From Gammaproteobacteria bacterium (lineage in GTDB: Bacteria > Pseudomonadota > Gammaproteobacteria > Steroidobacterales > PWYM01): DNA of 64,000 nucleotides. The stretch is from NCBI GenBank assembly GCA_007127715.1, contig SKYU01000003.1, positions 2,507 to 66,506 on the forward strand, in the 5' to 3' direction. A program made the position numbers and the translations under genes. Positions 15,877-41,794 of the stretch are shown piece by piece. The notes under the pieces are model-generated. The model did no database searches. It had not been told where the DNA came from and worked only from the letters and a program-made list of their open reading frames with translations. Within the stretch, counting starts at the first letter, position 1, and each line of letters opens with the position of its first letter.

Positions 15877-15892
15877 GCCGGCCTCCCTGCGC

Positions 15893-22566: not shown

Positions 22567-22622
22567 ACGCCGCCCGGAGGCTCATCTCCCCCGGGCGGGC
22601 CGCGCACAGCCAGGGCGAGCGC

Positions 22623-22916
22623 TCAGGCGCCCAGGACGTCGAAGAACTGCAGATCCATCTCCTCGGCCAGGCAGTCCAGGATCGGCGGCACCAGCTCGTC
22701 GTGGAACGACGAGGCCATGTGGGCATCGAACGCCGCCTGATCCTTGAAGCTGGAATACACCACATAGGTGTTGGGCTCGTCCCGGTGACGGATCAGGTCA
22801 TAGACGAGAGTGTCTGGCTCGTGCTCATGGGTCAGCGCCTTGAGCTTGATCTGCAGTGCCTCGAACTCGGCCGCCTTCTCCGGCTTGACCACCAGTTTCG
22901 CGATGAATGCCATCAT
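22623..22916 (-). CDS. ABM-domain (antibiotic biosynthesis monooxygenase-like) protein
   Basis: 97 aa with ferredoxin-like ABM pattern MMAFIAKLVVKPEKAAEFE...YVVYSSFKDQAAFDAH. Lies 20 nt downstream of the acyl-CoA synthetase gene. Confidence 0.85.
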   Translation of the reverse strand: MMAFIAKLVVKPEKAAEFEALQIKLKALTHEHEPDTLVYDLIRHRDEPNTYVVYSSFKDQAAFDAHMASSFHDELVPPILDCLAEEMDLQFFDVLGA

Positions 22917-22936
22917 GAGCGTGTCTCCTCGGGGTA

Positions 22937-24595
22937 TCAGCCGGCGTTCTTCAGACCGAGCTCATCGATGAGCCCGTCGCGAAGCCGGAATTTCTGGATC
23001 TTGCTGGTCGACATGGGCCAGGTCTCGACGAAGCGCACATGGCGCGGCACCTTGAACCCGGCGATCCTGCCCCTGCAGTACTCGATGAGCTCCTGCGCGT
23101 CGACCGTCTGCCCCGCCTCGAGCTCGACGAAGGCTGCGGCGACCTCCTGGAGGCGCTCGTCCGGAACACCGACCACCTGGGCCAGCTTCACCGCCGGGTG
23201 ACCGGCCAGGAACGCCTCGATTTCCGCCGCAGCCACATTCTCGCCGCCAACCTTCAACATGTCCTTCAGCCGGCCGTAGAACATGATCTGTCCCTCGGCA
23301 TCGAGCGAGCCGATATCGCCGGTGTGGTACCAGCCCTCGGCGTCCAGCGCCTCGGCGGTCTTGGCCGGATCCTTGTAGTAGCCTTCGAAGAGGCTGTAGC
23401 CACGCACCAGGATCTCGCCACGCTCGCCGGTCGGTGCATCCTCGCCGGTCGCCGGATCGACGATGCGCACCTCCAGCCCGGGCAGCGGCACGCCAAGCCG
23501 CCGGGTCCGCGCCTCGAGCGGGTCGTCCAGGCGGCTGGTACACACGGTGCCGGCCGTCTCGGTCATGCCGAAGGTCCCGACGTAGACCGTGTTGGGCATC
23601 GCTTTCAGCATCGCCTCCCGAATCCAGTCGGGCTGTACGGCGAAATTCGAGTTCATCAGCCGGATCCGCGACAGGTCCGTCTTCTCGAAGTCCGGGTGCT
23701 TGATGAGGTCGGCCATGATCGTCACGAAACAGGGATAGGTCGCCGTCACCTGCTCGCGCTCGAGCATGGCCAGCGCCACGCCGGCATCGAAATGCGCCAT
23801 GGTCAGGTAGGTACCGCCCACATCGAAGATCGACACCATCGGCAGGATGGCCGCAATATGGAAGACCGGCAGCGGCGACCAGAACCGATCCTCGGCCGTC
23901 AGCTGGTAGCGATGCCGACCCAGTGCGATGGAATTGCGCACCATCGCCTCATGGGTGATGGGACAGCCTTTCGGGTTGGCCGTAGTCCCCGAGGTGTAGA
24001 GCATCAGTGCGGGGTCGCGAAGGCGCACACGCGAGCGGATCTCCATGATGGTCTCGACCGCGACCTCGGCCCCGCGGGCGCGAAAGGCCTGTTCCGGCAG
24101 GAAACCGGGGGCCTCGCCCGGGCCCATCAGCACCAGACGCCGCAGCCGCGGCGCGGCCTCCAGCGCCAGAGCCGTGGGGTCGGGACCCTCGGCCAGTGCC
24201 GGGAACGCACCGGTCAGCCTTTCCACGAAATTGACGTGATCGTTGATGCGTGAGGTGGTGATGACCGCGACCAGGTCGGCATTCTCGACCACATAGGCCA
24301 GCTCGGCCGACTGATAACGCGCATTGATCGGCACCGCCACCGCGCCGCACAGCGCCACGCCGAAAAACAGCTCGGGGAAGTCCATGCAGGTCGGCATCAG
24401 CAGCCCGACGTGATCTCCGGGCCGGACACCAAGTGCATGCAGCGAGCGGGCATGGTCGATGGCGCGCGCAGCCAGCTCCCGGTAGCTGACTCGCTCCTCG
24501 GGAAAGACGATCGCATCGGTCCCGGGGTGACGCTCCGCGGCCTGCAGCAGCAGGTCTCCCAGTGTGGTGACGTTGATCCAGGGCGTCTTGGACAT
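22937..24595 (-). CDS. Acyl-CoA synthetase / AMP-dependent ligase
   Basis: Start at MSKTPWINVTTLGD (552 aa). AMP-binding motif LMLYTSGTTANPKG, plus YHTGDIG and GRLKDMLKVGGENV blocks. Confidence 0.93.
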   Translation of the reverse strand: MSKTPWINVTTLGDLLLQAAERHPGTDAIVFPEERVSYRELAARAIDHARSLHALGVRPGDHVGLLMPTCMDFPELFFGVALCGAVAVPINARYQSAELAYVVENADLVAVITTSRINDHVNFVERLTGAFPALAEGPDPTALALEAAPRLRRLVLMGPGEAPGFLPEQAFRARGAEVAVETIMEIRSRVRLRDPALMLYTSGTTANPKGCPITHEAMVRNSIALGRHRYQLTAEDRFWSPLPVFHIAAILPMVSIFDVGGTYLTMAHFDAGVALAMLEREQVTATYPCFVTIMADLIKHPDFEKTDLSRIRLMNSNFAVQPDWIREAMLKAMPNTVYVGTFGMTETAGTVCTSRLDDPLEARTRRLGVPLPGLEVRIVDPATGEDAPTGERGEILVRGYSLFEGYYKDPAKTAEALDAEGWYHTGDIGSLDAEGQIMFYGRLKDMLKVGGENVAAAEIEAFLAGHPAVKLAQVVGVPDERLQEVAAAFVELEAGQTVDAQELIEYCRGRIAGFKVPRHVRFVETWPMSTSKIQKFRLRDGLIDELGLKNAG

Positions 24596-24609
24596 CACGA
24601 CCGGCTCCG

Positions 24610-24897
24610 TCACTGCTCGAGCGGGTCGAGGTACTCGCGAACATAGGGCCCGTCGAGGCACTCGACCAGGCCCGGCGCCAGCGCCTTGAAATGCTCGGTG
24701 TTCTGGTGATCCTGCTCGGCCTGCTCGCTGGTGAAGGACTCGACCACGGCAAAGCGGTTGGGCTCGCGCAGGCGATAGAACTGGTAGATCAGCGTTTCGG
24801 GCTCGTGCGCATGCACCTTTTCCGTGAGGGCTTGCGCCAGGCGGATGAACTCCGCTTCCTTCTCGGGCTTGACGGTCATGCGGGAAATGAAAGACAT
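24610..24897 (-). CDS. ABM-domain monooxygenase-like protein (second copy)
   Basis: Track ORF 24610..24936 begins at a TTG. The ATG at 24897 gives MSFISRMTVKPEKEAEF, colinear with the first ABM copy. Lies 14 nt upstream of the synthetase start. Confidence 0.8.
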   Translation of the reverse strand: MSFISRMTVKPEKEAEFIRLAQALTEKVHAHEPETLIYQFYRLREPNRFAVVESFTSEQAEQDHQNTEHFKALAPGLVECLDGPYVREYLDPLEQ

Positions 24898-25046
24898 GCG
24901 CGCGGTCTTCTCGCTCACGGCCTGCTCCTCGGTCAACGATGTGTCGGAATGCGGAGTGCGTGCAGCGACCGTGACCCGGCCGGCCGGCCGTCGTCACACC
25001 CTCCCCCAAAGAGAGCCCGGATCATAGCATCGGCCCCCGAGCGAAG

Positions 25047-25064
25047 AAACAGTCATGACTGTTT
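25047..25064 (-). promoter_or_regulatory. Operator site S1: perfect 18-bp palindrome AAACAGTCATGACTGTTT upstream of the ABM-ACS-ABM operon
   Basis: Intergenic position. On the minus strand it is followed after 20 nt by the -10-like TATGAT (25026..25021). It shares AAAATAAACAGTCA with site S3. Confidence 0.7.
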
Positions 25065-25094
25065 ATTTTCTCGCCAGCCACTGCTCTGGCGTGC

Positions 25095-25772
25095 TCAGCG
25101 GTATTCGACCTCCACCTGCCACTGGTCACGCGGCTGCGCGTGGAGCTTCCAGTACTCCTCGGCGATGGTGTCCGGATCGAAGCGGGTTCCCGGATTGATG
25201 TGATCGAAGATGGTCACGGTGGCCACGTGGACATCGTGATAGGCCAGCTCCCGCGCCAGGCTGAAACAGAGGTTGCGCAGCCCCGCCTTGCCTATCCCGA
25301 GCGCGGCCACCTGCACGGGCGGATCCACCGCCGAACCGCCTCCGGTGAACAGGATCGTCCCACGGCGCTTGTAGCGCATGTCGGCCACGACCTGGCGCAC
25401 GCAGTGCAGGGCGCCGACCACGTTCACGCGGACGCTGTCGATCACGTCGAGCTCGGTGAGCAGGCTCGGTGCGCTGGTGCGGCGCAGGAAGGCGTTGAAG
25501 ATCAGCACCTCGGGTGCGCCGTGCGCCTGGCCGATCCGCTGGAACGCGGCAGCCACGGCCTTGCGGTCGGTGACGTCGGCCACGTGCATCGAACACTCGA
25601 TGCCCTCTTCGCGCAACTGCTCGTGGATCTCGGCGAGGCGCGCCTCGGTCCGCCCGAGCATGGCCACGTGAAAACCCTCGCGCCCGAAGCGCCGGCACAG
25701 CGCAAGTCCCATGCCGGGCCCGACCCCGGCGATCGCACAGACTTTCTTGTCCACCCGCACCCTCGCATCCAA
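25095..25772 (-). CDS. Short-chain dehydrogenase/reductase (SDR)
   Basis: Cofactor motif AIAGVGPGMGLALCRRF. 225 aa with an SDR-type fold pattern. Confidence 0.85.
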   Translation of the reverse strand: MDARVRVDKKVCAIAGVGPGMGLALCRRFGREGFHVAMLGRTEARLAEIHEQLREEGIECSMHVADVTDRKAVAAAFQRIGQAHGAPEVLIFNAFLRRTSAPSLLTELDVIDSVRVNVVGALHCVRQVVADMRYKRRGTILFTGGGSAVDPPVQVAALGIGKAGLRNLCFSLARELAYHDVHVATVTIFDHINPGTRFDPDTIAEEYWKLHAQPRDQWQVEVEYR

Positions 25773-25864
25773 GACCGGAGATCCCGGAGCGCTATGCTAT
25801 CATCGCCGCCGGCTGCAGGCGGCGCAGGATGCGTGCCGGCCGGACCGACAGGGATGACAGCATC

Positions 25865-26182
25865 ATGAGCGAGCTTCAGTACCACCCACTGATCCAGGCC
25901 GACGAACTGCCTGTCGGCAAATCGCGCTGCTTCGAGATCGGCGAACACCAGGTCCTGCTGTGCCACACGAAGGAGGGGTTCTTCGCGGTGCACAACATCT
26001 GCTCCCACGCCTATGCACGGCTGGACGAGGGCCGGCTGCGGGGGACGCGGGTCATCTGCCCGCTCCACGGAGCCTCCTTCGATGTGCGCGATGGCAGCGT
26101 CAAGGGCCCCCCTGCCTACGAGGGCATCCGCAGCTACCCCGTGCGCGTGACCGAGGGCCGCGTCGAGGTAGCCCTCGACTGA
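25865..26182 (+). CDS. Rieske [2Fe-2S] ferredoxin component
   Basis: 105 aa from MSELQYHPL. Rieske ligands CSHAY...CPLHGASF. Confidence 0.9.
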   Translation: MSELQYHPLIQADELPVGKSRCFEIGEHQVLLCHTKEGFFAVHNICSHAYARLDEGRLRGTRVICPLHGASFDVRDGSVKGPPAYEGIRSYPVRVTEGRVEVALD

Positions 26183-26203
26183 CGGCCCTGGCCTGCCCGC
26201 CGC

Positions 26204-27364
26204 CTAGCGGCGCTGGTCGAACCGTCGCCCCACCAGGGCCGCGGCAATGTTCGTTTTCTGGATGTCGACCGCGCCCCCGGCGATCCCCCAACCCCAGGCA
26301 TCGCGCAGGCGCCGCTCCATCGGGTAGTCCTTGGAATAACCGTAGCCGCCCATGAGCTGTACCGCGTGGCCAGCCACCTCGCGGGCAATCTCGTTGGCAA
26401 AGCACTTGGCCACCGAGGACTCGAGCACGCTGGGCAGTCCGTCCTGGGCGTTGCTCGCCGCACGCCAGATCAGAAGCCGCGCCGCGTCCACCCGCATCTT
26501 CATTTCGGCAAGTTTAAGCTGCACCGCCTGGAACTCGACGATCGGCTTGCCGAACTGCTCACGCTCCTGGACGTAGTCGAGCACATCCTCGAGCGCCCCC
26601 GATGCCTGGCCGAGCGCCATGGTGGCGTTGCCGCAGCGTTCGAGGTCGAACGCCTCCATGAGTTTGCGGAAGCCACCGGCAGGTACGATCACGTTCTCCA
26701 GCGGCAGCTCTACATTATCGAGGTAGATGTCGGAGGACGGCACACCACGGAAACCCATCAGTTCTTCCTGCGCGCCGAAGCTCAGCCCGGCGCGATCCTT
26801 CTCGACATACACCGCGCCGATTCCGCGAGCCCCGGGGTCATCGGACATCCGGCAGTACACGACGTAGCCATCGGCGTGACCGCCGCCTGAGCACCAGCGC
26901 TTGGTGCCACTGACGATGACCGTATCGCCACGGACCTCGGCGGTGGTCTTCAGATCGGTCAGTGCCGAGCCGGCCTGCGGTTCCGACATCGAGACGGCCA
27001 CGATCAGGTTGCCGCGGCAGACCTCCGGCACCACGCGCTGGCGAAGCGCCTCGCTGCCGAAACGCTCGATGGCGCGTACCGGACCCACGCAGGACTCGAA
27101 GACAGGAAAGGCCACGGCCGAGGAAATCTGCGCGAACTCCTCGAGGATGATCAGGGCCTCGAGATTACCCAGGCCCATGCCTCCGTACTGCTCGGGGACG
27201 TTGATGCCCAGAAACCCCAGCTCGGCAAACTCACGCACCAGCTCATGCGAGGGCGGCTCGCCCGTGCGTTCGATTTCTTCGGCGATTTTCGGCAGCCGTT
27301 CACGCGCGTACTTGCGGGCGGCCTGCTGCAGTTCCTTCTGCTCCTCGGTCAACTGGAAATCCAT
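26204..27364 (-). CDS. Acyl-CoA dehydrogenase
   Basis: 386 aa. ACAD N-terminal, middle and C-terminal patterns (GMGLGNLE, CSGGGHADGYVV, YEGTNDI-equivalent WGIAGGAVDIQKTNIA). Confidence 0.92.
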   Translation of the reverse strand: MDFQLTEEQKELQQAARKYARERLPKIAEEIERTGEPPSHELVREFAELGFLGINVPEQYGGMGLGNLEALIILEEFAQISSAVAFPVFESCVGPVRAIERFGSEALRQRVVPEVCRGNLIVAVSMSEPQAGSALTDLKTTAEVRGDTVIVSGTKRWCSGGGHADGYVVYCRMSDDPGARGIGAVYVEKDRAGLSFGAQEELMGFRGVPSSDIYLDNVELPLENVIVPAGGFRKLMEAFDLERCGNATMALGQASGALEDVLDYVQEREQFGKPIVEFQAVQLKLAEMKMRVDAARLLIWRAASNAQDGLPSVLESSVAKCFANEIAREVAGHAVQLMGGYGYSKDYPMERRLRDAWGWGIAGGAVDIQKTNIAAALVGRRFDQRR

Positions 27365-27451
27365 CTGCTTCTCCTTTCGTTATTGCAAGGCCCCCGCGGG
27401 GTGTGTAGCTTGCCTGCTCCCTGACCGGACATTTGCGGAGCCCTGTTCATC

Positions 27452-28255
27452 ATGCCCATCGCACACATCAACGGCCACGACATGTATTACGAACTCCACG
27501 GCAGCGGCGACCCGGCCATCTGCATGGGCGGCTGGGGAACGTTCTGTCACGGCGGCGACCGACACCTTGCCCGTGGACTGACGGACCGGTACACGGTGCT
27601 GCTGATCGACTACCGTGGCATTGGCGAATCCACCGACGACCTGTCGGTGCCACCGAGCATGAATCTCCATGCCCAGGACGTCATCGGCCTGCTCGACCAT
27701 CTCGGCTGGAGCCACGTGCACTTCATCGGGCTGGTCGGCATGGGCGCATGCATCTCGCAGGAAGTCGCCATCCAGCGACCCGACCTCGTGCGCTCGATGA
27801 TCAACATGGGCGCCTGGACATACTGCGACGACTTTCTCCGTGACCAGCTCGAGCTGTTCGCCATGGTGCATCGCGACTCGGGCTTCGAGGCCTTCCAGCG
27901 CTTCGTCACCGTGATGTCCTTCAAGCCGGAATACTACAACGCGCACAAGGACCGGCTGCTTGGTCCGAATGGCGGCTGGAAGGAGCTCAACGGGCGGCTG
28001 GAGGCGCACGAGCGCTTCGTCCGCGCCTGTATCGAACACGACGTACGCGATCGCCTCGGCCAGGTGAAGTGCCCGACGCTGGTGATCCACGCCGGCCAGG
28101 ACCTGGTCACCAGTCCACGCACCACACTGCCGATCGAGGAACTCATCCCCGGCGCCGAGGGCGTGATGATGGAAGACGTCGCGCACGTCGTCGCCGGCAA
28201 GGAAGAGAAAATCGCGTTCTGCGAGATCCTGCTCCCCTGGCTGGCGAAGCACTGA
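27452..28255 (+). CDS. Alpha/beta-hydrolase-fold protein lacking an obvious nucleophile
   Basis: HGSGDP...LIDYRGIGES; the elbow reads HFIGLVGMGACIS instead of GxSxG. The Asp (HAGQDLV) and His (EDVAHVV) positions are retained. Confidence 0.8.
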   Translation: MPIAHINGHDMYYELHGSGDPAICMGGWGTFCHGGDRHLARGLTDRYTVLLIDYRGIGESTDDLSVPPSMNLHAQDVIGLLDHLGWSHVHFIGLVGMGACISQEVAIQRPDLVRSMINMGAWTYCDDFLRDQLELFAMVHRDSGFEAFQRFVTVMSFKPEYYNAHKDRLLGPNGGWKELNGRLEAHERFVRACIEHDVRDRLGQVKCPTLVIHAGQDLVTSPRTTLPIEELIPGAEGVMMEDVAHVVAGKEEKIAFCEILLPWLAKH

Positions 28256-28270
28256 TCGGGGGAGACGCGC

Positions 28271-29455
28271 ATGAGCCTCGATTTCTCGCGCCTGCGGGTG
28301 CTCGACTTCGGCCGTTATGTCGCGGGCCCCTACTGCGCCACGCTGCTCGGCTACCTTGGCGCCGAGGTCATCCGGATCGAGAAACTTGACGGGGGCGAGG
28401 ACCGTTACATCGCCCCACTGGCCGAGACCGGCGAGGGCGGGGTGTTCCTGCAGACCGGATGCAACAAGCGCGGCATGACCCTGAACCCGCTGAAGCCACA
28501 GGGCCGGGAAATTCTCGCGCGGCTGGTGGCCACGGCCGACGTGGTCGTGGCCAACCTCACGCCCGCCGGCCTGGTACGGATGGGTCTGGACCATGACAGC
28601 CTGCGGGCCATCCGGCCGGATATCATCCTCACCACGCAGACCGCCTTCGGCGCCGAAGGGCCCGATGCCGAGCGTGGCGGATTCGATGGCGTCGGCCAGG
28701 CCATGTCGGGCGCGATGTACATGACCGGCACACCCGGTCAACCGGCCAAGGCGGCCGCGCCCTACGTGGATTACGCCACCGCGGTCCTCTCGGCCTTCGG
28801 CACGCTCGCCGCGCTGGTCCACCGCGAGCGCACCGGCGAAGGTCAGCACGTCGAGGCCTCGCTGCTCGGCACGGCCCTGGCGGTGTTCAACTCCCATCTC
28901 ATCGAGCAGGGCGTGGCCGCACCGGACCGCCGGCCCACCGGCAACCGGGTACAGACCTCGGCGCCCTCGGATGTGTTCTCCACCCGCGACGGCCATGTCC
29001 TCACCCACACCGTCGGCAACGGCCTGTTCCGGCGCTGGTGCGAACTGGTGGGCGAGCCCGGATGGATCACCGATCCGCGCTTTGCCACCGACCAGGGGCG
29101 CGGCGATCACCGCGACCTCATCTGCGCACGCATGGCCGAGTGGTGCGCCGGACGCAGCACCGCCGAGGCGCTCGAAGCGCTCGGGCGCGCAGGCATCCCC
29201 TGCGGACCGGTGATGGACCTGCAGCAGGCGCTGGACAATCCCCAGGTGGCGGCAATGGGCTGGCTGCAGGGCGTGTCGTTTCCCGGACTGCCTCGGCCGG
29301 CGCCGGTCGCCGACCTCCCGGTGAAGTTCTCCTCGCTGCCCGCTGGCATCCGCCAGGCGCCACCACGCCTTGGCGAACACACCGAGGCGATCCTCGCCGA
29401 GCTCGGCTACGGCGAGGACGAGATCGCTGCGCTGCGGGCCGCACGCGTCGTCTAG
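28271..29455 (+). CDS. Family III CoA-transferase (CaiB/BaiF-like)
   Basis: LRVLDFGRYVAGPYCATLLGYLGAEVIRIE...NKRGMTLN is the typical family III N-terminus. 394 aa. Confidence 0.92.
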   Translation: MSLDFSRLRVLDFGRYVAGPYCATLLGYLGAEVIRIEKLDGGEDRYIAPLAETGEGGVFLQTGCNKRGMTLNPLKPQGREILARLVATADVVVANLTPAGLVRMGLDHDSLRAIRPDIILTTQTAFGAEGPDAERGGFDGVGQAMSGAMYMTGTPGQPAKAAAPYVDYATAVLSAFGTLAALVHRERTGEGQHVEASLLGTALAVFNSHLIEQGVAAPDRRPTGNRVQTSAPSDVFSTRDGHVLTHTVGNGLFRRWCELVGEPGWITDPRFATDQGRGDHRDLICARMAEWCAGRSTAEALEALGRAGIPCGPVMDLQQALDNPQVAAMGWLQGVSFPGLPRPAPVADLPVKFSSLPAGIRQAPPRLGEHTEAILAELGYGEDEIAALRAARVV

Positions 29456-29493
29456 CATCCGGTGCATCGTCGCCCCAGGGGTCGTCACTGGAT

Positions 29494-30408: not shown

Positions 30409-30490
30409 GCAGGCTCCCCCCGGGTCCATATCGCCGTGATGATCGGCGGGCCGCCGATGCCGCGCGAGTATCGCACGGCGCCCCCCAAAA

Positions 30491-30508
30491 AAACAGTCAG
30501 GCTTGTTT
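30491..30508 (+). promoter_or_regulatory. Operator site S2 (AAACAGTCAGGCTTGTTT) plus promoter of the Rieske-oxygenase/thiolase operon
   Basis: Intergenic position. After 20 nt comes a consensus -10 TATAAT (30529..30534), with TTTCTT at -35 spacing. The downstream GCGCCC..CCCTAT block is shared with site S3. Confidence 0.7.
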
Positions 30509-30684
30509 CTTTTGGAGCGCCCTGTCCCTATAATCGAGACAAGTCATTGCCGTGCGAGCACGTCGCCGCCGATGACAGCACTTCGTTTCCGCATCCTCGA
30601 TGTCGGGACGATGGGGACAGGGACGTCCCGACTCCGCCACGTGCGGCCATTCGTGATCAGCCTGAAACCGGGACGCAGACCACC

Positions 30685-31896: not shown

Positions 31897-31899
31897 GGC

Positions 31900-33342: not shown

Positions 33343-33343
33343 C

Positions 33344-34549
33344 ATGGCCCGCGGCATCCGCGACAAGGTGGCGATCATCGGCATGGGCTGCTCACGCTTC
33401 GGTGAGCGCTGGGACTGCGGGCATGAGGACCTGATGGTCGAGGCCTATGCCGAGGCGATCGCCGATGCCGGTATCGACAAGGCCGATCTCGACGCTGCGT
33501 GGCTGGGCGTGTTCTTCGACGAGCAGAACACCGGCAAGTCGGCGCTGCCCCTGTCGATGGCGCTGCGCCTGCCGAACATCCCCGTCACACGCGTGGAGAA
33601 CCTCTGCGCTACCGGTACCGAGGCCCTGCGCGGCGCCGCCTATGCCGTGGCCGCCGGTGCCTGTGACATCGCCCTCGCCATGGGCGTGGAGAAACTCAAG
33701 GATACGGGCTACTCGGGCCTGCCCGAGCGCACCAAGGGGACGTTCGAGGATCTCTATCTGCCGAACAGCACCGCGCCCGGCGCCTTTGCCCAGCTTGCCA
33801 GCGCCTATGCCAACCGTCACGGCGTCCCCATGGACGACCTCAAGCGCGCCATGGCCCACATCTCGTGGAAAAGCCACCAGAACGCCCGAACCAACCCCAA
33901 GGCGCATCTGCGCAACACCCCGTCGATCGAGGACATCCTGAACGCACCGATGGTCTCCTACCCGCTCGGCACCTATGACTGCTGCGGCGTGAGCGACGGC
34001 GCGGCATGTGCCATCGTCACGACCCCGGAGATCGCCCGCAGCCTCGGGCGCCACGACGACCTCGTCACCATCAAGGCCCTGCAGCTGGCGCCGTCCAACG
34101 GCGTGGAGATGGGTCACGATGCCTGGGACGGCAGTCACACCATCACCACGCCGCTGGCCGCGAAGCGGGCCTATGAAGAGGCCGGTATCCGCGATCCGCG
34201 TCGGGATCTCGACCTCATCGAGGTACATGACTGCTTCTCGGTCACCGAACTGGTGATCATGGAGGACCTCGGACTCTCGCCACCGGGCGGAGCCATTCGC
34301 GACGTGCTCGACGGCGTCTATGACGCCGACGGCGAGGTGCCCTGCCAGATCGACGGCGGCCTGAAGTGCTTCGGCCATCCCATTGGCGCGTCGGGGCTGC
34401 GCATGGTCTACGAAATCTACCTGCAGCTGCTCGGTCGCGCCGGTGACCGCCAGCTGTCGAATCCAAAACTGGGACTGACGCACAACCTCGGCGGCATCCC
34501 GATTCGCAACGTGGCAGCCATCTCCGTGATCGGCCTGCACGGTGCCTGA
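33344..34549 (+). CDS. SCP2/Ltp-type thiolase (thiolase-like lipid-transfer protein family)
   Basis: The ATG lies 1 nt after the upstream stop. VAIIGMGCSRFGE...VENLCATGTEALRGAAYAV (active-site Cys) and ...GHPIGASGLRM are present. Confidence 0.9.
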   Translation: MARGIRDKVAIIGMGCSRFGERWDCGHEDLMVEAYAEAIADAGIDKADLDAAWLGVFFDEQNTGKSALPLSMALRLPNIPVTRVENLCATGTEALRGAAYAVAAGACDIALAMGVEKLKDTGYSGLPERTKGTFEDLYLPNSTAPGAFAQLASAYANRHGVPMDDLKRAMAHISWKSHQNARTNPKAHLRNTPSIEDILNAPMVSYPLGTYDCCGVSDGAACAIVTTPEIARSLGRHDDLVTIKALQLAPSNGVEMGHDAWDGSHTITTPLAAKRAYEEAGIRDPRRDLDLIEVHDCFSVTELVIMEDLGLSPPGGAIRDVLDGVYDADGEVPCQIDGGLKCFGHPIGASGLRMVYEIYLQLLGRAGDRQLSNPKLGLTHNLGGIPIRNVAAISVIGLHGA

Positions 34550-34579
34550 CTCCGCACGCTTGACCAGGGGACACACGCG

Positions 34580-35479
34580 ATGACCACCATGAAGGCCACG
34601 CCCATCAAAGAAGAGCCGACACGTCGCTGGGGCTTCACCGACGAGGAGCTCGCCTCACGGCCGACCGTCTACCGTGACGATCTGCTCGCCGACCAGGTGT
34701 TCATCGTCTCCGGCGGCGGCAGCGGGCTGGGTCGCGCCATGACCTTCCTGCTCTCGCGCCTGGGCGCCCGGGTGATGATCTGCGGACGGCGCGAGGAGAA
34801 GCTGGAGGACTGCCGCGAGGCGGTGGCGCGACTGATCCCCGGCAGCGAGGTCGCCACCACCGCGATGACCATTCGTGATCCCGAGCAGGTCGACGCGCTG
34901 GTCGAGCGGACCTGGCATGAATTCGGACGGCTCGATGGCATCGTCAACAACGGGGGTGGACAGTTTCCGCAGGCCGCGATCGACTTCAGCGTCAAGGGCT
35001 GGAATGCGGTGATCGACACCAACCTCAACGGCACCTGGTACATGATGCAGTCGGCTGCCCGCCGCTGGCGAGATGAGCAGCGACCGGGGAGCATCGTCAA
35101 CATCGTCGCACTGGTGCACCGGGGAATGCCCCAGGTGGCACACACCTGCGCCGCCCGTGCAGGTGTGGTGTATCTGTCAAAGACCGTTGCGGTGGAGTGG
35201 GCGCCGCTGGATATCCGCGTGAACTGCGTGGCGCCGGGGTCGGTGGAGACCGAGGGATTCAACGTCTACCCGCCTGCGGCGGCGGAGGCGTTCCGTTACT
35301 CCAACCCTCTGCATCGGCTGGGCGACGCCTACGACATCGCCGAGGCGGTCGTCTACCTGCTGGCACCCTCGGGCAAGTTTGTCACCGGCGAGGTGCTGAC
35401 GGTGGACGGCGGCGGTCAGCAGTGGGGCGATGTCTGGCCAGCCGGCATCCCGGACTATTTCCGTATCCCGGAGCGTTGA
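34580..35479 (+). CDS. SDR-family oxidoreductase (enoyl/dienoyl-CoA reductase-like)
   Basis: VSGGGSGLGRAM cofactor motif and NNGGGQF block. Resembles PECR / 2,4-dienoyl-CoA reductase-type SDRs. Confidence 0.88.
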   Translation: MTTMKATPIKEEPTRRWGFTDEELASRPTVYRDDLLADQVFIVSGGGSGLGRAMTFLLSRLGARVMICGRREEKLEDCREAVARLIPGSEVATTAMTIRDPEQVDALVERTWHEFGRLDGIVNNGGGQFPQAAIDFSVKGWNAVIDTNLNGTWYMMQSAARRWRDEQRPGSIVNIVALVHRGMPQVAHTCAARAGVVYLSKTVAVEWAPLDIRVNCVAPGSVETEGFNVYPPAAAEAFRYSNPLHRLGDAYDIAEAVVYLLAPSGKFVTGEVLTVDGGGQQWGDVWPAGIPDYFRIPER

Positions 35480-35488
35480 ACCGACCCG

Positions 35489-36127
35489 TCAGCGCCGCCG
35501 CCGTGATGGCGGAGGATCTTCGTCGCCGTAGGGGTTGTAACCGCGTTCCCGGCGTTCCCGGGGATCGATCCCGCTGCTCCCGGCACCTTGACGCGCCTTG
35601 CTGGGCCCGCTGCGCAGTGCCCAGGCCCACACGTCCCCCTCGGCCTCTCCATGACGCCGCCCACGTGGACCATGACCCGAGAGGCTGTCGTAGGGATTGG
35701 TGCCGGCGTCGGCAGGCTGCGCGAGAGACAGGGTCTGCAGGGCCCAGTCTTCAGGGCCCGGCATCTTTTGCGCTACAGGCTCCGGGGCAGTCCGACCATG
35801 GTCAGCAGCCTCGGCAGCGTTCGCAGCCTCCCTGGCCTGCTGCTGGCGAGCCACCTCACCACTGACGACGGTCAGGTCGCGCTGCTCGAGCGGCTCATCG
35901 AGACTGAGGGCCGGGTTATCCAGCCGGCGAAGCAGCAGGGTGGTTTCCTCAAGATCGAACGCGCCGGTGCTGGTGTTCCACTCCCACACCGCACCCCCAT
36001 GGCGGAAGGTCACCTTGCCGGCATCGCTGTCACGGACAGAACGCGTGCTGGCGGCGGCGTCTCCCACTCGATCATCCGACGCTGATCGCGCCCTCGGCGG
36101 TTTGCCCGGCGGTGCTCTTTCGCTCAT
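35489..36127 (-). CDS. Hypothetical protein (low-complexity, repeated LSL...NPY[DG] motifs)
   Basis: Start chosen at MSERAPPGKPP (212 aa). No recognisable domain. Contains LSLDEP, LSLAQPADAGTNPYDS and GYNPYGD. The coding call rests on ORF length and position only. Confidence 0.4.
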   Translation of the reverse strand: MSERAPPGKPPRARSASDDRVGDAAASTRSVRDSDAGKVTFRHGGAVWEWNTSTGAFDLEETTLLLRRLDNPALSLDEPLEQRDLTVVSGEVARQQQAREAANAAEAADHGRTAPEPVAQKMPGPEDWALQTLSLAQPADAGTNPYDSLSGHGPRGRRHGEAEGDVWAWALRSGPSKARQGAGSSGIDPRERRERGYNPYGDEDPPPSRRRR

Positions 36128-36194
36128 GACCTGCCCCGCCTCACGTATTGACGGGGGACATGGGTAACAGACAAACGCGCGGAGAGTCAACCTG

Positions 36195-36234
36195 ACGTGC
36201 CCCGGGGTGGCGCGAGCCGCCCCCCGGGGCACGT
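36195..36234 (-). terminator. Strong GC stem-loop immediately after the TonB-dependent receptor stop (no U-tract)
   Basis: ACGTGCCCCGGGG-N14-CCCCGGGGCACGT, a perfect 13-bp stem, begins 8 nt after the stop at 36243. Confidence 0.5.
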
Positions 36235-36242
36235 TCTGCAGA

Positions 36243-38795
36243 CTAGAAGTTGAATCCCAGTTCCAGGCCGAAGCTCCGCGGCATGCCCCACTGGGTATGG
36301 GTCCACAGGGTCGCCACGGACTGGCTCGCGATCCGGTAGCGCTTGTCGCCAAGGTTCTTGCCGTAGGCCCGCACGAAATAGCGGCCATCGCGATCGTTGT
36401 AGGTCACCGAGGCGTTGAACAACGTCTTGGTATCCAGGAAGGCGTCGAACTCACGCCCGGCCACCGCGATGTAGAACAGGTTGCGATCCTCGTAATACAC
36501 CTCGCCCGAGATATCGATGTAACCACCCGCCAGCTCGATCTCGTAGGTCGCCGAGATCGCGCCGCTCTTCTTCGGCGAGCGCGGCACCGGCAGGCCGCTG
36601 AGGTCCTGCGAAATCGGCAGGATACGGCCACCGGTGAGCGGATCTACCAGCTCTTCCTGCTCGAGGAAGAAATTCTTGTAGCTGGCATCCAGCCAGGCGG
36701 CCTGAGCGCGCACCCGGAAATTGTCGGTCAACAGTGCCTGGAACTCGAGCTCCACACCCTTGGCCTCGACCTTGGCGGCGTTGTAGAACACGGTCTCCTG
36801 GAACTCCACGCCACCACGCTCGGTGATCACGTTGGCTGCACGCTGGGCGTCGGAGTAGCGCACAAGAAAGGCCGTCGGGTTGAAGCGCAGGCGGCCGTCG
36901 GCCGTCTCGAACTTCAGGCCGAGTTCGTAGTTGGTGGCGAACTCGGGATCCACAGGCCTGGTCAGGGCGGGCACCAGCAGGCCACTGGTGCCGGTCTGGT
37001 CGTTGTAGCCGCCGGCCTTGTAACCACGGGACACGGTCAGGTAGGACAGCAGGTCGTCGGTGATTCGATAGGCACCGGTCACTCGCCAGCTCGGCTCATT
37101 CCAGGCCTGCCGGAGGTTCTCGAAGCCGGGCGTGGACGAGTCGACGATCGTGCCGCCGGGGAAGCGGATAAAATCGCCCGCATCCAGCGGCTCGTTGAGG
37201 TCGTCTGCAGTCAGGCCGGGGTTATTGGGATCGAGTTCCGAGAACGGCACCTGTGTGCGCCCAGCCCAGCTACGCTTGTCACGGGTGTAGCGGAAACCGG
37301 CACCCAGCGTGAATCGGTCGTTGAACTCGTAGGTCACATCGGCGTAGCCGGCCAGCGAATCGGAATCCTGCCGGTTGCACAGCACCGAAGGCGTGTTGTT
37401 GTTGAAGGTCGCCGGCAGACCGAGTGCGGCAAAATCAAGCGCCAGGTCGATGAACCCCAGCACCTGCACCACACAGAACGCAGCGTCGTTCTCCTGGTAG
37501 AACCCGCCGACCACGAAGTTCAACGGACCGGAGAGATCGGAGGCGATACGCGCCTCGAACTGGGTGGTCTGGCGGGTGGTGCTGCGGTTGGCGTCGAACA
37601 GCGAGAGCACCTCTCCCGTGACCGTGTTGACCGGCGCGGCACCCGTGTAGGTATTGGGCAGGATCTCGTCCTGGTCGCGACGCCCCGCTGACGCAATCAG
37701 GGTGTAGTCGGGGCTGAAGGCCCAGTCGAAGTTCAGGTAGAAGCCATCGACATCGATCCGCTGCCCACGACCCATGCCCAGCAGGGCATCATTGCGCTGG
37801 GTGGAGCCCATGTTCTTGACCGGGTCCCCATCCGGACGGGTGAAGCCCAGCACGTTCCAGAGGTAGGGCCCGTCTGGCGGAGTGTCGTTGAACGCAGGCA
37901 CGGCGTCGGAGCGGTCGCGCAGGATCTCGTACTGCAGCAGCAGGGTCATGTCCTCGTTGATGTCCCACTGAGCCTTGACGCGCCCGTTGAACACATCCTC
38001 ACCGCCGCTGCGCTCGCCACTACCGCGCCCGGACTCTCCGGTGAACCCTTCGATCACGAAAGGCTCGAAGGAGCCGTCGAACAGCCCCAGCGTGTTGATC
38101 GGTCCGTAGGGCGCACCCAGCCGGTAATAACCATCGGACTTCACGTAGCCGCCGACGAAACGCAGGGCGAACACATCCTCGACAATCGGAACATCCAACG
38201 CCCCCATGACGCGACGCTCATTGAAGCTGCCGTAGGCCACGCGGCCCTGGCCGCCGAGCTCGCTCATGTTCGGGCGCTTGCTGCGGATGTTGACCGCGCC
38301 GCCGGTGGTGTTCTTGCCGAACAGCGTCCCCTGCGGGCCACGCAGGAACTCGATGCTCTCGATGTCGAAGGTGTCGAGCAGCTGGGTCTGCACGCTGGGG
38401 ATGACGAAATCATCGATCTGGACGCTCACCGGCGCGTCCTGGTAGACGATGATGTCGGTCAGGCCGACGCCGCGCATCGCGAAGGAGGCGGCGTTGAAGG
38501 CGGTGATGCGCGCGGCGGAGAACCCGGGGACTGCGGCGGCCAGCCCGGAGATGTCACGGGCCACCATGCGGTCGATGTCGTCGGGGCTGAACGCCGAGAC
38601 GGAGACAGGCGTATCCTGGAGTGCCGTCTCGACGCGCCGGGTGGCCGTCACCATGATCTCGTCCAGCGCGCGTGCGCGCTCGCCCTCGGGCTGCTGCGCC
38701 AGGGCGGCGGTGACGCTGGCGGCGAGCAGCGCGGTCCCGGTCAGTGAAACCACAGCCGCACGACGCGACCGGCCGACAATGGCAGATGCTTGCAT
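36243..38795 (-). CDS. TonB-dependent receptor
   Basis: Signal peptide, TonB-box-like DEIMVTATRR, plug (IEFLRGPQGTLFGKNTTGGAVNI), 850 aa barrel, and terminal ...LELGFNF. Confidence 0.93.
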   Translation of the reverse strand: MQASAIVGRSRRAAVVSLTGTALLAASVTAALAQQPEGERARALDEIMVTATRRVETALQDTPVSVSAFSPDDIDRMVARDISGLAAAVPGFSAARITAFNAASFAMRGVGLTDIIVYQDAPVSVQIDDFVIPSVQTQLLDTFDIESIEFLRGPQGTLFGKNTTGGAVNIRSKRPNMSELGGQGRVAYGSFNERRVMGALDVPIVEDVFALRFVGGYVKSDGYYRLGAPYGPINTLGLFDGSFEPFVIEGFTGESGRGSGERSGGEDVFNGRVKAQWDINEDMTLLLQYEILRDRSDAVPAFNDTPPDGPYLWNVLGFTRPDGDPVKNMGSTQRNDALLGMGRGQRIDVDGFYLNFDWAFSPDYTLIASAGRRDQDEILPNTYTGAAPVNTVTGEVLSLFDANRSTTRQTTQFEARIASDLSGPLNFVVGGFYQENDAAFCVVQVLGFIDLALDFAALGLPATFNNNTPSVLCNRQDSDSLAGYADVTYEFNDRFTLGAGFRYTRDKRSWAGRTQVPFSELDPNNPGLTADDLNEPLDAGDFIRFPGGTIVDSSTPGFENLRQAWNEPSWRVTGAYRITDDLLSYLTVSRGYKAGGYNDQTGTSGLLVPALTRPVDPEFATNYELGLKFETADGRLRFNPTAFLVRYSDAQRAANVITERGGVEFQETVFYNAAKVEAKGVELEFQALLTDNFRVRAQAAWLDASYKNFFLEQEELVDPLTGGRILPISQDLSGLPVPRSPKKSGAISATYEIELAGGYIDISGEVYYEDRNLFYIAVAGREFDAFLDTKTLFNASVTYNDRDGRYFVRAYGKNLGDKRYRIASQSVATLWTHTQWGMPRSFGLELGFNF

Positions 38796-38892
38796 GACTT
38801 CTCCCCCAGTTGGACGGACACCACAGCATCCGCTCGTCTGCTGACGGGCGGATGCCGCGACAGAGACGCCATTACAGCGGCCTGTTCAAAAA

Positions 38893-38911
38893 AAAGCAAG
38901 CACGACTGTTT
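38893..38911 (-). promoter_or_regulatory. Operator site S4 (minus strand AAACAGTCGTGCTTGCTTT) upstream of the TonB-dependent receptor
   Basis: Lies in the divergent intergenic region. After 16 nt on the minus strand comes the -10-like TGTAAT (38876..38871). Confidence 0.6.
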
Positions 38912-39019
38912 GTGGTATTCGCGACACATGAACCGAAGAAAGATCAGAAGCTTACAGAGGCTGCGTCGGTCGCCGTCGACAAGCCGACAGGGGGACATGC
39001 CCATACTGCACTGCAAAAT

Positions 39020-39037
39020 AAACAGTCACGCTTGTTT
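39020..39037 (+). promoter_or_regulatory. Operator site S3 (AAACAGTCACGCTTGTTT) upstream of the second Rieske oxygenase
   Basis: Lies in the divergent intergenic region. After 16 nt comes the -10-like TATCCT (39054..39059). The flanks are homologous to site S2. Confidence 0.65.
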
Positions 39038-39131
39038 TTTGCCGCGCCCGCCCTATCCTTGACGCTGTTACCCTAAGCGGCAAACGGGTGTTTCGCCCGC
39101 GCCGAGTCACCGTCACAGGAGCAGAGCCCTC

Positions 39132-40493
39132 ATGGCCTACAACTACGAGCATGGCCCCGTCGTGAATCCGAATGCCCCGGAAGACTCGCTCGAGGCCAAG
39201 CGCCCCTACGTCGATAACGGTACCGACGTGGTCTCGCCAGACCGCTATTACAGTCCCGAGTTCATGGCGAAGGAATGGGAGCGCATGTGGCCGCGCGTCT
39301 GGCTGATTGCCGGCCCACGCACCGATCTTCGCGAGCCCGGCGACTACTTCGTGTTCAACGTCGGCCCCGAGTCCTTCGTGATCACGCTGGACGACAACCA
39401 TGTGGTCCGCGCGCACTACAACGTCTGTCCCCACCGCGGAAACCAGCTGGTGCTGAACGAGCGCGGCAGCGTGCCCCGCTTCACCTGCTCGTTCCACTCG
39501 TGGAGCTTCGAACTCGACGGGCAGCTGAACTCGATCACCGATGAGGACAGCTTCCGCCCCGAAGTGCTCTGCCCCCGCCCCCAGCTCTCGAGCGTCCGCT
39601 GCGAGGAGCATGCCGGGCTGATCTGGATCAACATGGATGGCAAGGCGCCGCCGCTGAAGGAGTATATCGGGCTGCCCGAAGGCTACCTGGAGAGCTACCG
39701 GATCGAGGACATGTTCGCGGTTCGCCATGTCTCCAGCGAGTGGGCGGCAAACTGGAAGAACGGCATCGATGCCTTCTACGAGAGCTATCATCTGCACGCC
39801 GTCCACCCGCAGACCTCGACGGTCATGGACGATCTTGGTGTGCAGTACGACCTCTACCCGAACGGTGCCTCACGCATGATCGTACCGATCTGCAAGAAAA
39901 GCCCGCGGGTACCGGACCAGGAGTCGGTCGATGCAGGGCTCGAGTTCATGATCCGTGATGCCGGCGCCGACCCGACGCAGTACGAGGGCTCGGCCATCGG
40001 CGTGCGCGAGTTCATCCAGCGCTCCAAGCGGGTGCGCGCCGAGAAGCTTGGACTGGATTACAGCGAGCTCAGCGACGCCCAGCTGACCGACAGCTGGGCC
40101 ACAGGCATCTTCCCCAACGTGCAGATTGGCCTGCATCCGGAAGGTGCCTTCCTGATGCGCTTCCTGCCGCACGAATCCGACCCCAACCGCTTCTACTACG
40201 ACACCATCACGCTGTTCCGCCCGGCCGACGACCCGAGCTACACCGTACCGGCCTGGATGGGCCTGCCGGAAGGAATGGACACCAGCGGCGAGACCCGCCC
40301 CGACACCGAGCACGTCGGCATCGGCGAGCCCGCGGGGCTTGGGCTGGTCCTCGACCAGGATTCCGAACTGCTGCCTGTGGTGCAGAAGGGCATGCGCTCG
40401 CGGGGCTTCCGCGGTCCGCTGTGGGGTGAACAGGAAGTCCGTATCCGTCACTTCCACAAGGAACTGGACCGCTACATCAACGGCGAGAAATGA
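39132..40493 (+). CDS. Rieske non-heme iron oxygenase, alpha subunit (second, no beta subunit)
   Basis: 453 aa. Rieske motif CPHRGNQLV...CSFHSWSF. Iron ligands in DAFYESYHLHAVH. An AGGAG RBS lies upstream. Confidence 0.9.
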   Translation: MAYNYEHGPVVNPNAPEDSLEAKRPYVDNGTDVVSPDRYYSPEFMAKEWERMWPRVWLIAGPRTDLREPGDYFVFNVGPESFVITLDDNHVVRAHYNVCPHRGNQLVLNERGSVPRFTCSFHSWSFELDGQLNSITDEDSFRPEVLCPRPQLSSVRCEEHAGLIWINMDGKAPPLKEYIGLPEGYLESYRIEDMFAVRHVSSEWAANWKNGIDAFYESYHLHAVHPQTSTVMDDLGVQYDLYPNGASRMIVPICKKSPRVPDQESVDAGLEFMIRDAGADPTQYEGSAIGVREFIQRSKRVRAEKLGLDYSELSDAQLTDSWATGIFPNVQIGLHPEGAFLMRFLPHESDPNRFYYDTITLFRPADDPSYTVPAWMGLPEGMDTSGETRPDTEHVGIGEPAGLGLVLDQDSELLPVVQKGMRSRGFRGPLWGEQEVRIRHFHKELDRYINGEK

Positions 40494-40569
40494 CCTCCCT
40501 GGTGTCGACCTGGAGCTGATCGACCCAGTCGTCGATCGACACGGGCATCCAGGACAGCACCTCCAGAGA

Positions 40570-40603
40570 CCTGGCGGCGAGTGGATCGTCGCCAGGTTTT
40601 TTT
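40570..40603 (+). terminator. Rho-independent terminator
   Basis: CCTGGCGGCGA-GTGGA-TCGTCGCCAGG (one mismatch) followed by TTTTTTT, about 77 nt after the oxygenase stop. Confidence 0.75.
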
Positions 40604-41731: not shown

Positions 41732-41794
41732 TCCAACCGGGCTCCCTCGGGCGAACAGGCGCTGTATCCCGCGGTGCAGACCGCGCCCGTGGGG

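Follow-up and report, generated by a model that had tools for sequence, protein, structure and literature searches.

What task, if any, unites the genes for coenzyme A (CoA) thioester metabolism, the two Rieske oxygenases and the outer membrane receptor that lie together in the genome of a gammaproteobacterium of the order Steroidobacterales? The genes occupy positions 22623 to 40493 of a 64,000-nucleotide stretch (the window; contig SKYU01000003.1, assembly GCA_007127715.1), to which all coordinates given without a contig refer. A preliminary description had regarded them as a single CoA-dependent catabolic island. It was found that the single unit is supported by conserved synteny and a shared operator, but the base composition is not island-like. 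Our interpretation, to which we give a probability of about 60%, is that these genes form the principal locus of a single catabolic regulon, controlled by a repressor, through which an organic acid is broken down as a CoA thioester.

Conserved synteny and a shared operator

Relatives of the first of the two oxygenases (Rieske oxygenase 1, RO1) were searched for in one-genome-per-species assemblies, and at least 551 stretches were confirmed. The best 80 of these were used for locus comparison, and the 45 of them with full 10-kb flanks for gene counts. The synteny was found in 45 of the 45 full-flank loci, and the counts for individual genes, given in the feature list below, run from 45 for RO1 and a short-chain dehydrogenase/reductase (SDR2) to 29 for the acyl-CoA synthetase (ACS), apart from two genes confined to this genus. 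In whole genomes, the same gene neighborhood around RO1 was present in the genus of this bacterium and in five other families of the order. The synteny seen in several families of the order and in all full-flank loci, together with the operator shared by the operons, shows that the gene set is one conserved unit and not a chance grouping.

The RO1 orthologues, with 67–70% identity across families, were found in very many metagenomic Gammaproteobacteria. The best 80 loci are labeled mostly Steroidobacteraceae, Woeseiaceae, Acidibacter and Nevskiaceae, plus the cultured Elongatibacter sediminis CH-27. The carriers include lineages abundant in marine sediment, lake, soil and sludge, with freshwater and soil metagenome-assembled genomes (MAGs) as frequent as saline ones. 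The distribution is patchy but locally dense: RO1 was present in 4 of 401 genomes of an even sample of the class versus 10 of 31 in the order. The boundaries of the stretch were right as first drawn because each of the four genes to the right of the second oxygenase gene, RO2 (nitroreductase, ferredoxin-like, NUDIX and flavoprotein), was found in 0–1 of the 45 loci; a terminator-like hairpin is located 3′ of RO2 (40576–40593).

The open reading frames (ORFs) were ranked by codon-position G+C, because the G+C content of the window is 64–70%, then scanned with Pfam and NCBIfam models, and the ORF translations were read. In this way, every gene class listed in the preliminary description was recovered between 22623 and 40493, along with two ABM-domain genes, absent from that list, which surround ACS in one minus-strand operon; the ORF-less spacer at 35480–36242 was likewise missing from the list. 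Shorter starts were set for three over-long ORFs, namely ACS (24598), RO1 (30685) and the thiolase (33344); the raw ACS ORF of 690 aa was too long, with the AMP-binding domain beginning at residue 156. The features are as follows, with the number of full-flank loci that contain each gene.

22623–22916, minus strand: ABM1, 97 aa; PF03992, 52 bits; last gene of the ABM2-ACS-ABM1 operon; 34/45 loci
22937–24598, minus strand: ACS, 553 aa starting from MSKTPW; AMP-binding and AMP-binding_C domains; 29/45 loci within 10 kb
24610–24897, minus strand: ABM2, 95 aa; PF03992, 55 bits; 37/45 loci
25047–25064: operator copy 1, perfectly palindromic (AAACAGTCATGACTGTTT); lies 150 bp upstream of ABM2; position kept in same-genus loci
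25095–25772, minus strand: short SDR, 225 aa; adh_short domain, no YxxxK motif; 3/45 loci
25865–26182, plus strand: Rieske-type [2Fe-2S] ferredoxin, 105 aa; PF00355, 65.5 bits; CSH...CPLH motif; 30/45 loci
26204–27364, minus strand: acyl-CoA dehydrogenase (ACAD), 386 aa; four ACAD domains; 41/45 loci, about 78% identity
27452–28255, plus strand: alpha/beta-fold protein; Abhydrolase_1 domain, GLVGMG in place of GxSxG; 3/45 loci
28271–29455, plus strand: family III CoA-transferase, SUGCT/Frc-like, 394 aa; PF02515, 375 bits; 37/45 loci
29494–30429, minus strand: glutathione S-transferase (GST), 311 aa, divergent from RO1; GST_N_3 and GST_C domains; 30/45 loci
30491–30508: operator copy 2, upstream of RO1, from the motif scan
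30685–31896, plus strand: RO1, alpha-only Rieske oxygenase, 403 aa; Rieske and Ring_hydroxyl_A domains; 45/45 loci
31900–33342, plus strand: HMGS/PhlA-like domain (HMGS, hydroxymethylglutaryl-CoA synthase) fused to a DUF35 zinc ribbon and OB fold, 480 aa; ACP_syn_III_C, zf-ChsH2 and OB_ChsH2_C domains; 43/45 loci
33344–34549, plus strand: SCP2-type thiolase, 401 aa, starting 1 nt past the preceding stop; NF004810; 44/45 loci
34580–35479, plus strand: SDR2, PECR/DECR/AtuB-like putative enoyl- or dienoyl-CoA reductase, 299 aa; 45/45 loci
35480–36242: ORF-less spacer of 763 bp between the convergent SDR2 and receptor genes
36243–38795, minus strand: TonB-dependent receptor (TBDR), 850 aa, divergent from RO2; plug and barrel domains; 35/45 loci
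38894–38911, minus strand: operator copy 3, on the TBDR side, from the motif scan
39020–39037, plus strand: operator copy 4, on the RO2 side, from the motif scan
39132–40493, plus strand: RO2, alpha-only Rieske oxygenase, 453 aa; 34/45 loci

The shared operator is an 18-bp palindrome, AAACAGTCAnGCTTGTTT, located upstream of the ABM2-ACS-ABM1 operon (25047), between the GST gene and the RO1 operon (30491), and twice between the TBDR gene and RO2 (38894 on the minus strand and 39020), with 5 strand-matches in the window relative to 0.03 expected. The motif was found at 191 promoter-gap sites in 78 of the best 80 of at least 551 related loci; none of these sites is within a matched gene, the distance to a gene start is about 100 bp or less for most of them, and in almost every one of the 80 loci RO1 has a copy 31–120 bp upstream. 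In other lineages, the operator also precedes the ferredoxin gene and the ACAD/CoA-transferase pair. This sharing of one operator sequence argues for co-regulation of the operons. A TATAAT sequence was read by eye about 20 nt downstream of operator copy 2, and a strict scan for sigma-70 promoters found none.

The rest of this genome contains only three further operator copies: at position 5990 of contig C48, at the start of an E1alpha-E1beta-E2 operon; at position 5154 of contig C121, between an SDR gene and a putidaredoxin-type ferredoxin gene; and at position 11242 of contig C37, between a TBDR gene and a third oxygenase with MaoC. A TetR protein with 65% identity to the cluster-adjacent TetR of other genomes is likewise encoded on contig C121. 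This TetR was present in 10 of 10 RO1-positive relatives versus 2 of 21 RO1-negative relatives, counts that are suggestive rather than statistical, these genomes being kin and not independent. It is adjacent to the cluster in 11 related loci, and it is encoded on the contig of the cluster in genomes G001, G005, G012 and G023. Because it lies about 31–33 kb from the cluster in the two closest species, contig C121 probably adjoins the present contig. On the basis of this co-occurrence, the C121 TetR is the likely repressor that binds AAACAGTCAnGCTTGTTT.

A related cluster on contig C15 of this genome consists of genes for a TBDR, three SDRs, a TetR paralogue (49% identity), two ACADs, two ThuA-domain proteins and a VOC (vicinal oxygen chelate) protein that is 52% identical to the cluster-linked VOC protein of relatives; no operator copy was found in this cluster within 3 mismatches.

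Outside the class, RO1 orthologues with 58–65% identity were found on plasmids of cultured Alphaproteobacteria. The Niveispirillum cyanobacteriorum TH16 plasmid carries the core cluster and a TBDR gene (NZ_CP025614.1, positions 103749–132954 of a 237-kb plasmid), adjoined by genes for an IS66 transposase and a RelE toxin and with GntR instead of TetR, a context that suggests that the cluster has spread horizontally and exchanged its regulator. In Paracoccus pantotrophus and Sphingobium sp. RAC03, the oxygenase is accompanied by crotonase, MaoC or thioesterase, plus ACAD and E1-E2(-E3), and these loci also hold both ferredoxin types, VOC, ThuA and the DUF35/thiolase pair; in Paracoccus, a branched-chain-amino-acid-type ABC transporter takes the place of the TBDR. 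The genes that directly follow the RO1-family gene occur in three layouts, namely the thiolase pair and reductase (here), crotonase-SDR-ligase (Paracoccus) and thioesterase-MaoC (Sphingobium).

The gene content also varies among the closer relatives. The TBDR in the 35 loci is either an orthologue (61–72% identity) or of another type (38–44%). The short SDR and the alpha/beta-fold protein are confined to this genus and both lack their classical catalytic motifs. Their sites are those at which divergent promoters with operators are found in other lineages (ABM2/ferredoxin and ACAD/CoA-transferase). Most relatives have extra genes that are lacking here: a CMD/AhpD-like gene directly 3′ of SDR2, a Glyoxalase_4 VOC gene (about 180 aa), a second GST gene, and genes for a PQQ/cytochrome c dehydrogenase, an E1/E2 2-oxoacid dehydrogenase, MaoC, ThuA, a putidaredoxin-type ferredoxin and TetR. 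The CMD/AhpD-like gene, with a CxxC motif, is found at the position of the 763-bp spacer in most relatives, including one same-genus species. No remnant of a decayed CMD gene was detected in the spacer by tblastn or with a hidden Markov model, and the spacer contains no Rfam match and no credible ORF. The spacer is only 68–70% identical to that of the closest species, and the adjoining proteins are about 90% identical.

The thiolase pair and the Rieske oxygenases

The thiolase was the only protein encoded between 22623 and 40493 that scored above a curated cut-off (NF004810, 672 bits versus a cut-off of 403), and its best match in the PDB was the archaeal complex thiolase 6esq_A. Residue C108, the HDCF motif at 315–318 and the GH motif at 364–365 were invariant in 67 orthologues. 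The preceding gene encodes an N-terminal HMGS-like domain nearest to PhlA and then to archaeal HMGS, in which all four positions of the catalytic tetrad are changed relative to 6esq_I (E82 to T, C114 to L, H238 to P and N270 to H). In 74 orthologues of this HMGS-like::DUF35 protein, the first tetrad position was always T, the other three were variable, and the four zinc-ribbon cysteines were invariant. Judged by these residues, the HMGS-like domain is catalytically dead and the thiolase is intact.

A fused complex of the same kind from Pseudomonas fluorescens, PfACAT/HMGS-DUF35, cleaves acetoacetyl-CoA and forms neither acetoacetyl-CoA nor HMG-CoA, and fused thiolase/HMGS-DUF35 pairs were found in about 1000 loci but not placed in any pathway (Liao et al., Nat Commun 2026, PMC12960953). 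By analogy with this homologue, the pair described here is expected to be thiolytic, without HMG-CoA synthesis. The preliminary description had proposed beta-oxidation-like or retro-aldol side-chain processing; because the catalytic cysteine, HDCF and GH are kept in all 67 orthologues, thiolytic cleavage is favored, and the retro-aldol part of the proposal is not.

RO1 and RO2 are paralogues with 27% identity. The Rieske ligands are C97/H99/C117/H120 in RO1 and C99/H101/C119/H122 in RO2; in an alignment of 12 RO1-family sequences, the RO1 ligands and the H217/H222/D343 iron site were invariant, and RO2 carries an HLHAVH motif. By this residue evidence, the metal sites of both proteins are intact. 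No gene for an oxygenase beta subunit scored over the PF00866 cut-off in the whole genome (90% complete), and none is present in the cluster, in agreement with the initial reading of both proteins as alpha-only Rieske oxygenases; by sequence, they are of the homomeric type.

The relationship of the two oxygenases to characterized families is distant. GbcA was the top NCBIfam model for RO1, RO2 and their C121 paralogue, and neither RO1 (118 bits) nor RO2 (104 bits) reached the family cut-off (670). The PDB sequence matches of both were mainly over the Rieske half, with CntA leading at about 1e-26, and no KshA chain was among the matches at E ≤ 1e-5 for either protein. The AlphaFold model of RO1 (mean pLDDT 76) was nearest to CntA, Stc2, TPADO and 3n0q, at 16–22% identity; CntA and Stc2 ranked first in the fold comparison (TM score 0.67–0.73), with TPADO and naphthalene dioxygenase scoring about equal. 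The ESM Atlas matches for RO1 were to generic "ring-hydroxylating oxygenase" clusters only.

A single BphA4/putidaredoxin-reductase-type gene with a Reductase_C domain was found on contig C50 and an FNR-like gene on contig C48. The C50-type reductase gene is single-copy in 23 of 31 relatives (a count that takes in the unpublished genome G021, which enters no other result given here), including all of the RO1-positive ones, and is never on the contig of the cluster. The preliminary description had called the ferredoxin reductase and the regulator absent, which holds for the stretch itself but not for the genome, where a genome-wide search returned this one BphA4-type gene, the operator copies on C48, C121 and C37, and the likely TetR repressor on C121. 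The two are therefore encoded away from the cluster, as is common in systems of this kind; in bacteria with several oxygenases, sharing of one reductase from a separate locus is the rule. The flavoprotein gene at 43560–45209 was ruled out as the oxygenase reductase, as it belongs to the glutathione-reductase family and was found in 0 of 45 related loci.

This genome contains at least eight alpha-only Rieske oxygenase genes in 2.8 Mb. They include a second tandem pair on contig C191 (12766–15332), encoding an RO1 paralogue (62% identity) and an RO2-like protein (31% identity), with no CoA genes alongside; a pair of this type recurs in genomes G005 and G023.

The best PDB matches of the other enzymes provide a general picture of their chemistry. 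The synthetase was matched to feruloyl-CoA synthetase (8wev) and FadD13, and the homomeric ACAD, which is MCAD/SCAD/glutaryl-CoA-dehydrogenase-like, to MCAD-type enzymes. The CoA-transferase was matched to 4ed9, SUGCT (9br7) and formyl-CoA transferase; its assignment as an alpha-methylacyl-CoA racemase was unsupported, as these matches are true transferases. The GST was closest to 4kf9 and 3ic8, both uncharacterized, with LigG matching at only 1e-6. The top NCBIfam model for SDR2 was 2,4-dienoyl-CoA reductase (203 bits versus a cut-off of 318), and its best PDB matches were PECR (1yxm), 3imf (a Bacillus dienoyl-CoA-reductase-type SDR) and AtuB (6lln); the YxxxK motif is absent. SDR2 thus looks like an enoyl- or dienoyl-CoA reductase, as had been suggested for one of the two SDRs, rather than a 3-hydroxyacyl-CoA dehydrogenase. 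Two further initial observations held: the alpha/beta-fold protein has no serine nucleophile, with GLVGMG in place of GxSxG, and no extradiol dioxygenase or KstD was found in the stretch or among the window ORFs scanned.

Proposed pathway and rival explanations

We propose the following scheme for the degradation of an organic acid as its CoA thioester. The substrate would cross the outer membrane via the TBDR and would be activated by the ligase, which is always encoded between the two ABM proteins, with the SUGCT/Frc-like CoA-transferase perhaps re-activating a carboxylate or dicarboxylate intermediate; both roles are suggested by the enzyme families. The ACAD and the PECR/DECR-like SDR2 would then determine how many double bonds are present and where. 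Oxygen would be added by RO1, and at a different step by RO2, to a carbon that is inaccessible to ordinary beta-oxidation. That these oxygenases may act on a thioester is suggested by their operon partners, because the RO1-family genes directly precede genes for CoA-ester enzymes in all three layouts. Electrons would pass from NAD(P)H to the BphA4-type reductase encoded on C50, the Rieske ferredoxin of the cluster, and the oxygenase. The resulting beta-oxoacyl-CoA would be cut thiolytically, with the dead HMGS-like::DUF35 protein acting as a scaffold for the thiolase. The C121 TetR would control the pathway by binding to AAACAGTCAnGCTTGTTT at the ABM2-ACS-ABM1, GST/RO1-operon, TBDR and RO2 promoters and also at the E1-E2 2-oxoacid dehydrogenase genes, the ferredoxin/SDR pair and the TBDR/oxygenase/MaoC locus.

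Several results weigh against this interpretation. The weakest point is the beta-oxo group, the origin of which is a guess because there is no enoyl-CoA hydratase or 3-hydroxyacyl-CoA dehydrogenase in the locus and SDR2 is reductase-like. The ABM, GST, CMD and VOC proteins have no explained role in the scheme, and SDR2, ACS, ACAD, the CoA-transferase and both oxygenases are all below the NCBIfam cut-offs. The ferredoxin, ACAD and hydrolase/CoA-transferase genes have no operator in front of them in this genus, where those for the ferredoxin and ACAD/CoA-transferase may have escaped the repressor. The source genome is a MAG, 90% complete, and the kinship of the genomes compared limits what the TetR co-occurrence can say.

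As for the substrate, a small to medium lipophilic carboxylate in which beta-oxidation is blocked by a branch, a ring or conjugated unsaturation, of a terpenoid or alicyclic type, is our preferred but tentative suggestion, which we consider possible but doubtful. The bulky substrate that had been envisaged is itself doubtful, as Paracoccus pairs the same oxygenase family with an ABC transporter and not with a TBDR. It is a less probable, speculative idea that RO1 is the founding member of a Rieske family that acts on acyl-CoA thioesters, installing the oxygen that enables the scaffolded thiolase to cut a blocked chain. If this were true, the locus would represent an undescribed global route in Woeseiaceae, Steroidobacteraceae and plasmid-bearing Alphaproteobacteria for a common natural acid, for example, one that is isoprenoid-derived or contains a quaternary carbon. 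Branched-chain alpha-oxidation, in which 2-hydroxylation is followed by a BCKDH-like complex, was rejected, as the operator-linked E1/E2 proteins are PDH/acetoin-like rather than BCKDH-like and are below cut-offs; it survives only within the loose suggestion for the substrate. No characterized pathway in the literature searched was found to fit this gene set, and no orthologue with a defined substrate was found in NCBIfam, the PDB or that literature.

Among the alternatives, an aromatic-acid hybrid pathway of the ipf or salicylyl-CoA type is unlikely, albeit the one with the most to recommend it. In such a pathway, RO1 would dioxygenate the ring of an aryl-alkanoate-CoA, the thiolase/DUF35 pair would remove the acyl-CoA side chain to give a catechol or quinol, and the GST, ABM and VOC proteins would process the product. 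In the ipf genes of Murdoch and Hay, a ligase and a Rieske oxygenase are said to occur, as here, along with an SCP2-type thiolase and DUF35; the best PDB match of the ligase is feruloyl-CoA synthetase, two GST types and the VOC protein recur in related loci, and ABM proteins include quinol monooxygenases, the Niveispirillum copy being so annotated. However, the oxygenases lack a beta subunit and their first-ranked fold matches are quaternary-amine monooxygenases, neither a conserved dioxygenase for ring cleavage nor a conserved cis-diol dehydrogenase came to light (the VOC protein belongs to the Glyoxalase_4 type of about 180 aa), and SDR2 is reductase-like. Another alternative, in line with the fold and the GbcA, CntA and Stc2 matches, is dealkylation of a CoA thioester, in which RO1 and RO2 hydroxylate the carbon beside a quaternary nitrogen or ether oxygen, and the hemiaminal or hemiacetal collapses to a beta-oxoacyl-CoA for the thiolase. 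This would account for the beta-oxo group without a hydratase or dehydrogenase and is in keeping with the formyl-CoA-transferase-like CoA-transferase, the amino-acid-type ABC transporter in Paracoccus, and a host from soda lakes, which are rich in osmolytes. Nevertheless, the identity to CntA and Stc2 is only about 21%, with matches mainly over the Rieske half and a GbcA score far below the cut-off; the TBDR, the GSTs and the periplasmic PQQ dehydrogenase of the regulon fit a lipophilic substrate better; and the cluster is not more frequent in saline than in freshwater and soil MAGs. We regard dealkylation as improbable.

The resemblance to steroid or bile-acid side-chain degradation that had been pointed out found no support, and we give this possibility the slightest chance of all. 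The steroid system ChsH2-Ltp2 also pairs DUF35 with a thiolase-fold partner, many carriers are labeled Steroidobacteraceae, and a sphingomonad side-chain cluster has a ligase, an ACAD and a Rieske monooxygenase. That cluster, however, is without a thiolase, and its oxygenase is KshA-like, its ACAD heteromeric and amidases are present. Neither oxygenase here matched KshA at E ≤ 1e-5, the window and the related loci showed no genes for KstD, Hsa or heteromeric MaoC, and the thiolase is of a thiolytic kind and not an Ltp2-type aldolase. It could finally be argued that there is no single pathway and that unrelated catabolic genes are neighbors by chance, given the seven transcription units over both strands, the two genus-specific insertions with degenerate catalytic motifs, and the three promoters in this genus without an operator. 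We consider this very improbable in view of synteny that extends across orders and classes to the alphaproteobacterial plasmids and of the operator common to the operons.

Occurrence, flanks and comparison with known systems

The DNA of the locus was found in soda-lake, alkaline-sediment, lake-water and bioreactor metagenomes of eight studies. In one RNA-Seq library of a culture (X15), the depth was low and flat over all 18.5 kb (22500–41000), spacer included, and because of this, transcription is indistinguishable from DNA carry-over. Library X15 is filed under a single organism, and this bacterium was apparently a companion in that culture, which is a possible isolation source. Two lake metatranscriptomes contained a few contigs of 160–230 nt over the ABM2/ACS start, the GST gene, the RO1 5′ end, the HMGS::DUF35 gene and the RO2 5′ end, which cannot rank the genes or show co-expression.

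The genes on either side are not related to the unit. Those on the left comprise a sodium symporter, DUF885 and a minus-strand cluster (12072–18298) that encodes a class-V aminotransferase/kynureninase-like protein, a PrnB-like heme enzyme (PF08933, 567 bits), an amidohydrolase and a second TBDR; it resembles tryptophan or indole-type catabolism and has zero operator copies. To the right are genes for a RutE-like nitroreductase, a thioredoxin-like ferredoxin, NUDIX and a disulfide-reductase-family flavoprotein, followed by housekeeping genes. The genes at 40709–42091, just past RO2, encode a RutE-type malonic-semialdehyde reductase (NF003768, 289 bits; cut-off 152), the thioredoxin-like [2Fe-2S] ferredoxin candidate and a 105-aa ORF; found in 1 of 45 loci, they are probably outside the regulon.

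The cluster is no local oddity, with RO1 relatives in at least 551 stretches and an almost invariant core operon and operator. It provides a physiological setting for the fused thiolase/HMGS-DUF35 pairs and defines a large, well-conserved Rieske oxygenase family outside every curated model and solved structure. The palindromic operator, the candidate TetR and the cultured carriers make the question of the substrate directly testable.

The Pseudomonas PfACAT/HMGS-DUF35 complex is similar to the pair described here in that an HMGS-like domain without the E-C-H-N tetrad is fused to DUF35 next to a thiolase with Cys, HDxF and GHx, and the expected activity is again thiolysis of a beta-ketoacyl-CoA; the Pseudomonas pair is a minimal locus in no defined pathway (PMC12960953). 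In contrast, the pair here has the central place in an operon of five genes (four in this genome) that begins with a Rieske oxygenase gene and belongs to a conserved regulon. The archaeal thiolase/HMGS/DUF35 complex (6esq) and PhlACB (5m3k) consist of the same three modules, the thiolase being nearest to 6esq_A and the HMGS-like domain to PhlA, but the HMGS module here appears inactive, unlike the archaeal one, and the thiolase keeps HDxF, unlike PhlC. The bile-salt side-chain cluster of Sphingobium sp. Chol11 has a CoA ligase, an ACAD, a Rieske monooxygenase of unassigned role and no linked reductase, but it differs in its KshA-like oxygenase, heteromeric ACAD, amidases and absence of a thiolase, and is an analogy only (Feller et al. 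2021). The homomeric, alpha-only CntA, Stc2 and GbcA lead the sequence matches of RO1 and RO2 and, about level with TPADO and naphthalene dioxygenase, the fold comparison, but they are far away at about 21% identity and scores well under the family cut-off, and the context here is one of CoA-thioester enzymes rather than amine catabolism. The ibuprofen genes ipfABDEF of Sphingomonas Ibu-2 and Rhizorhabdus wittichii MPO218 reportedly combine a CoA ligase, a Rieske oxygenase whose presumed substrate is the thioester, and an SCP2-type thiolase with a DUF35 partner, with electron-transfer genes apart; the ipf oxygenase is said to be a two-subunit alpha/beta dioxygenase and the DUF35 protein free-standing. 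The present cluster differs in its alpha-only oxygenases, fused dead HMGS domain, ACAD, enoyl-reductase-like SDR, CoA-transferase, ABM, GST and TBDR. What is known, then, is the kinds of parts, one of them characterized in 2026. What is new is the assembly, which has no characterized counterpart: a conserved operon of a Rieske oxygenase, an apparently dead HMGS/DUF35 protein, a thiolase and a putative enoyl-reductase under a palindromic operator, together with its own ligase, ABM pair, ACAD, CoA-transferase, second oxygenase and receptor.

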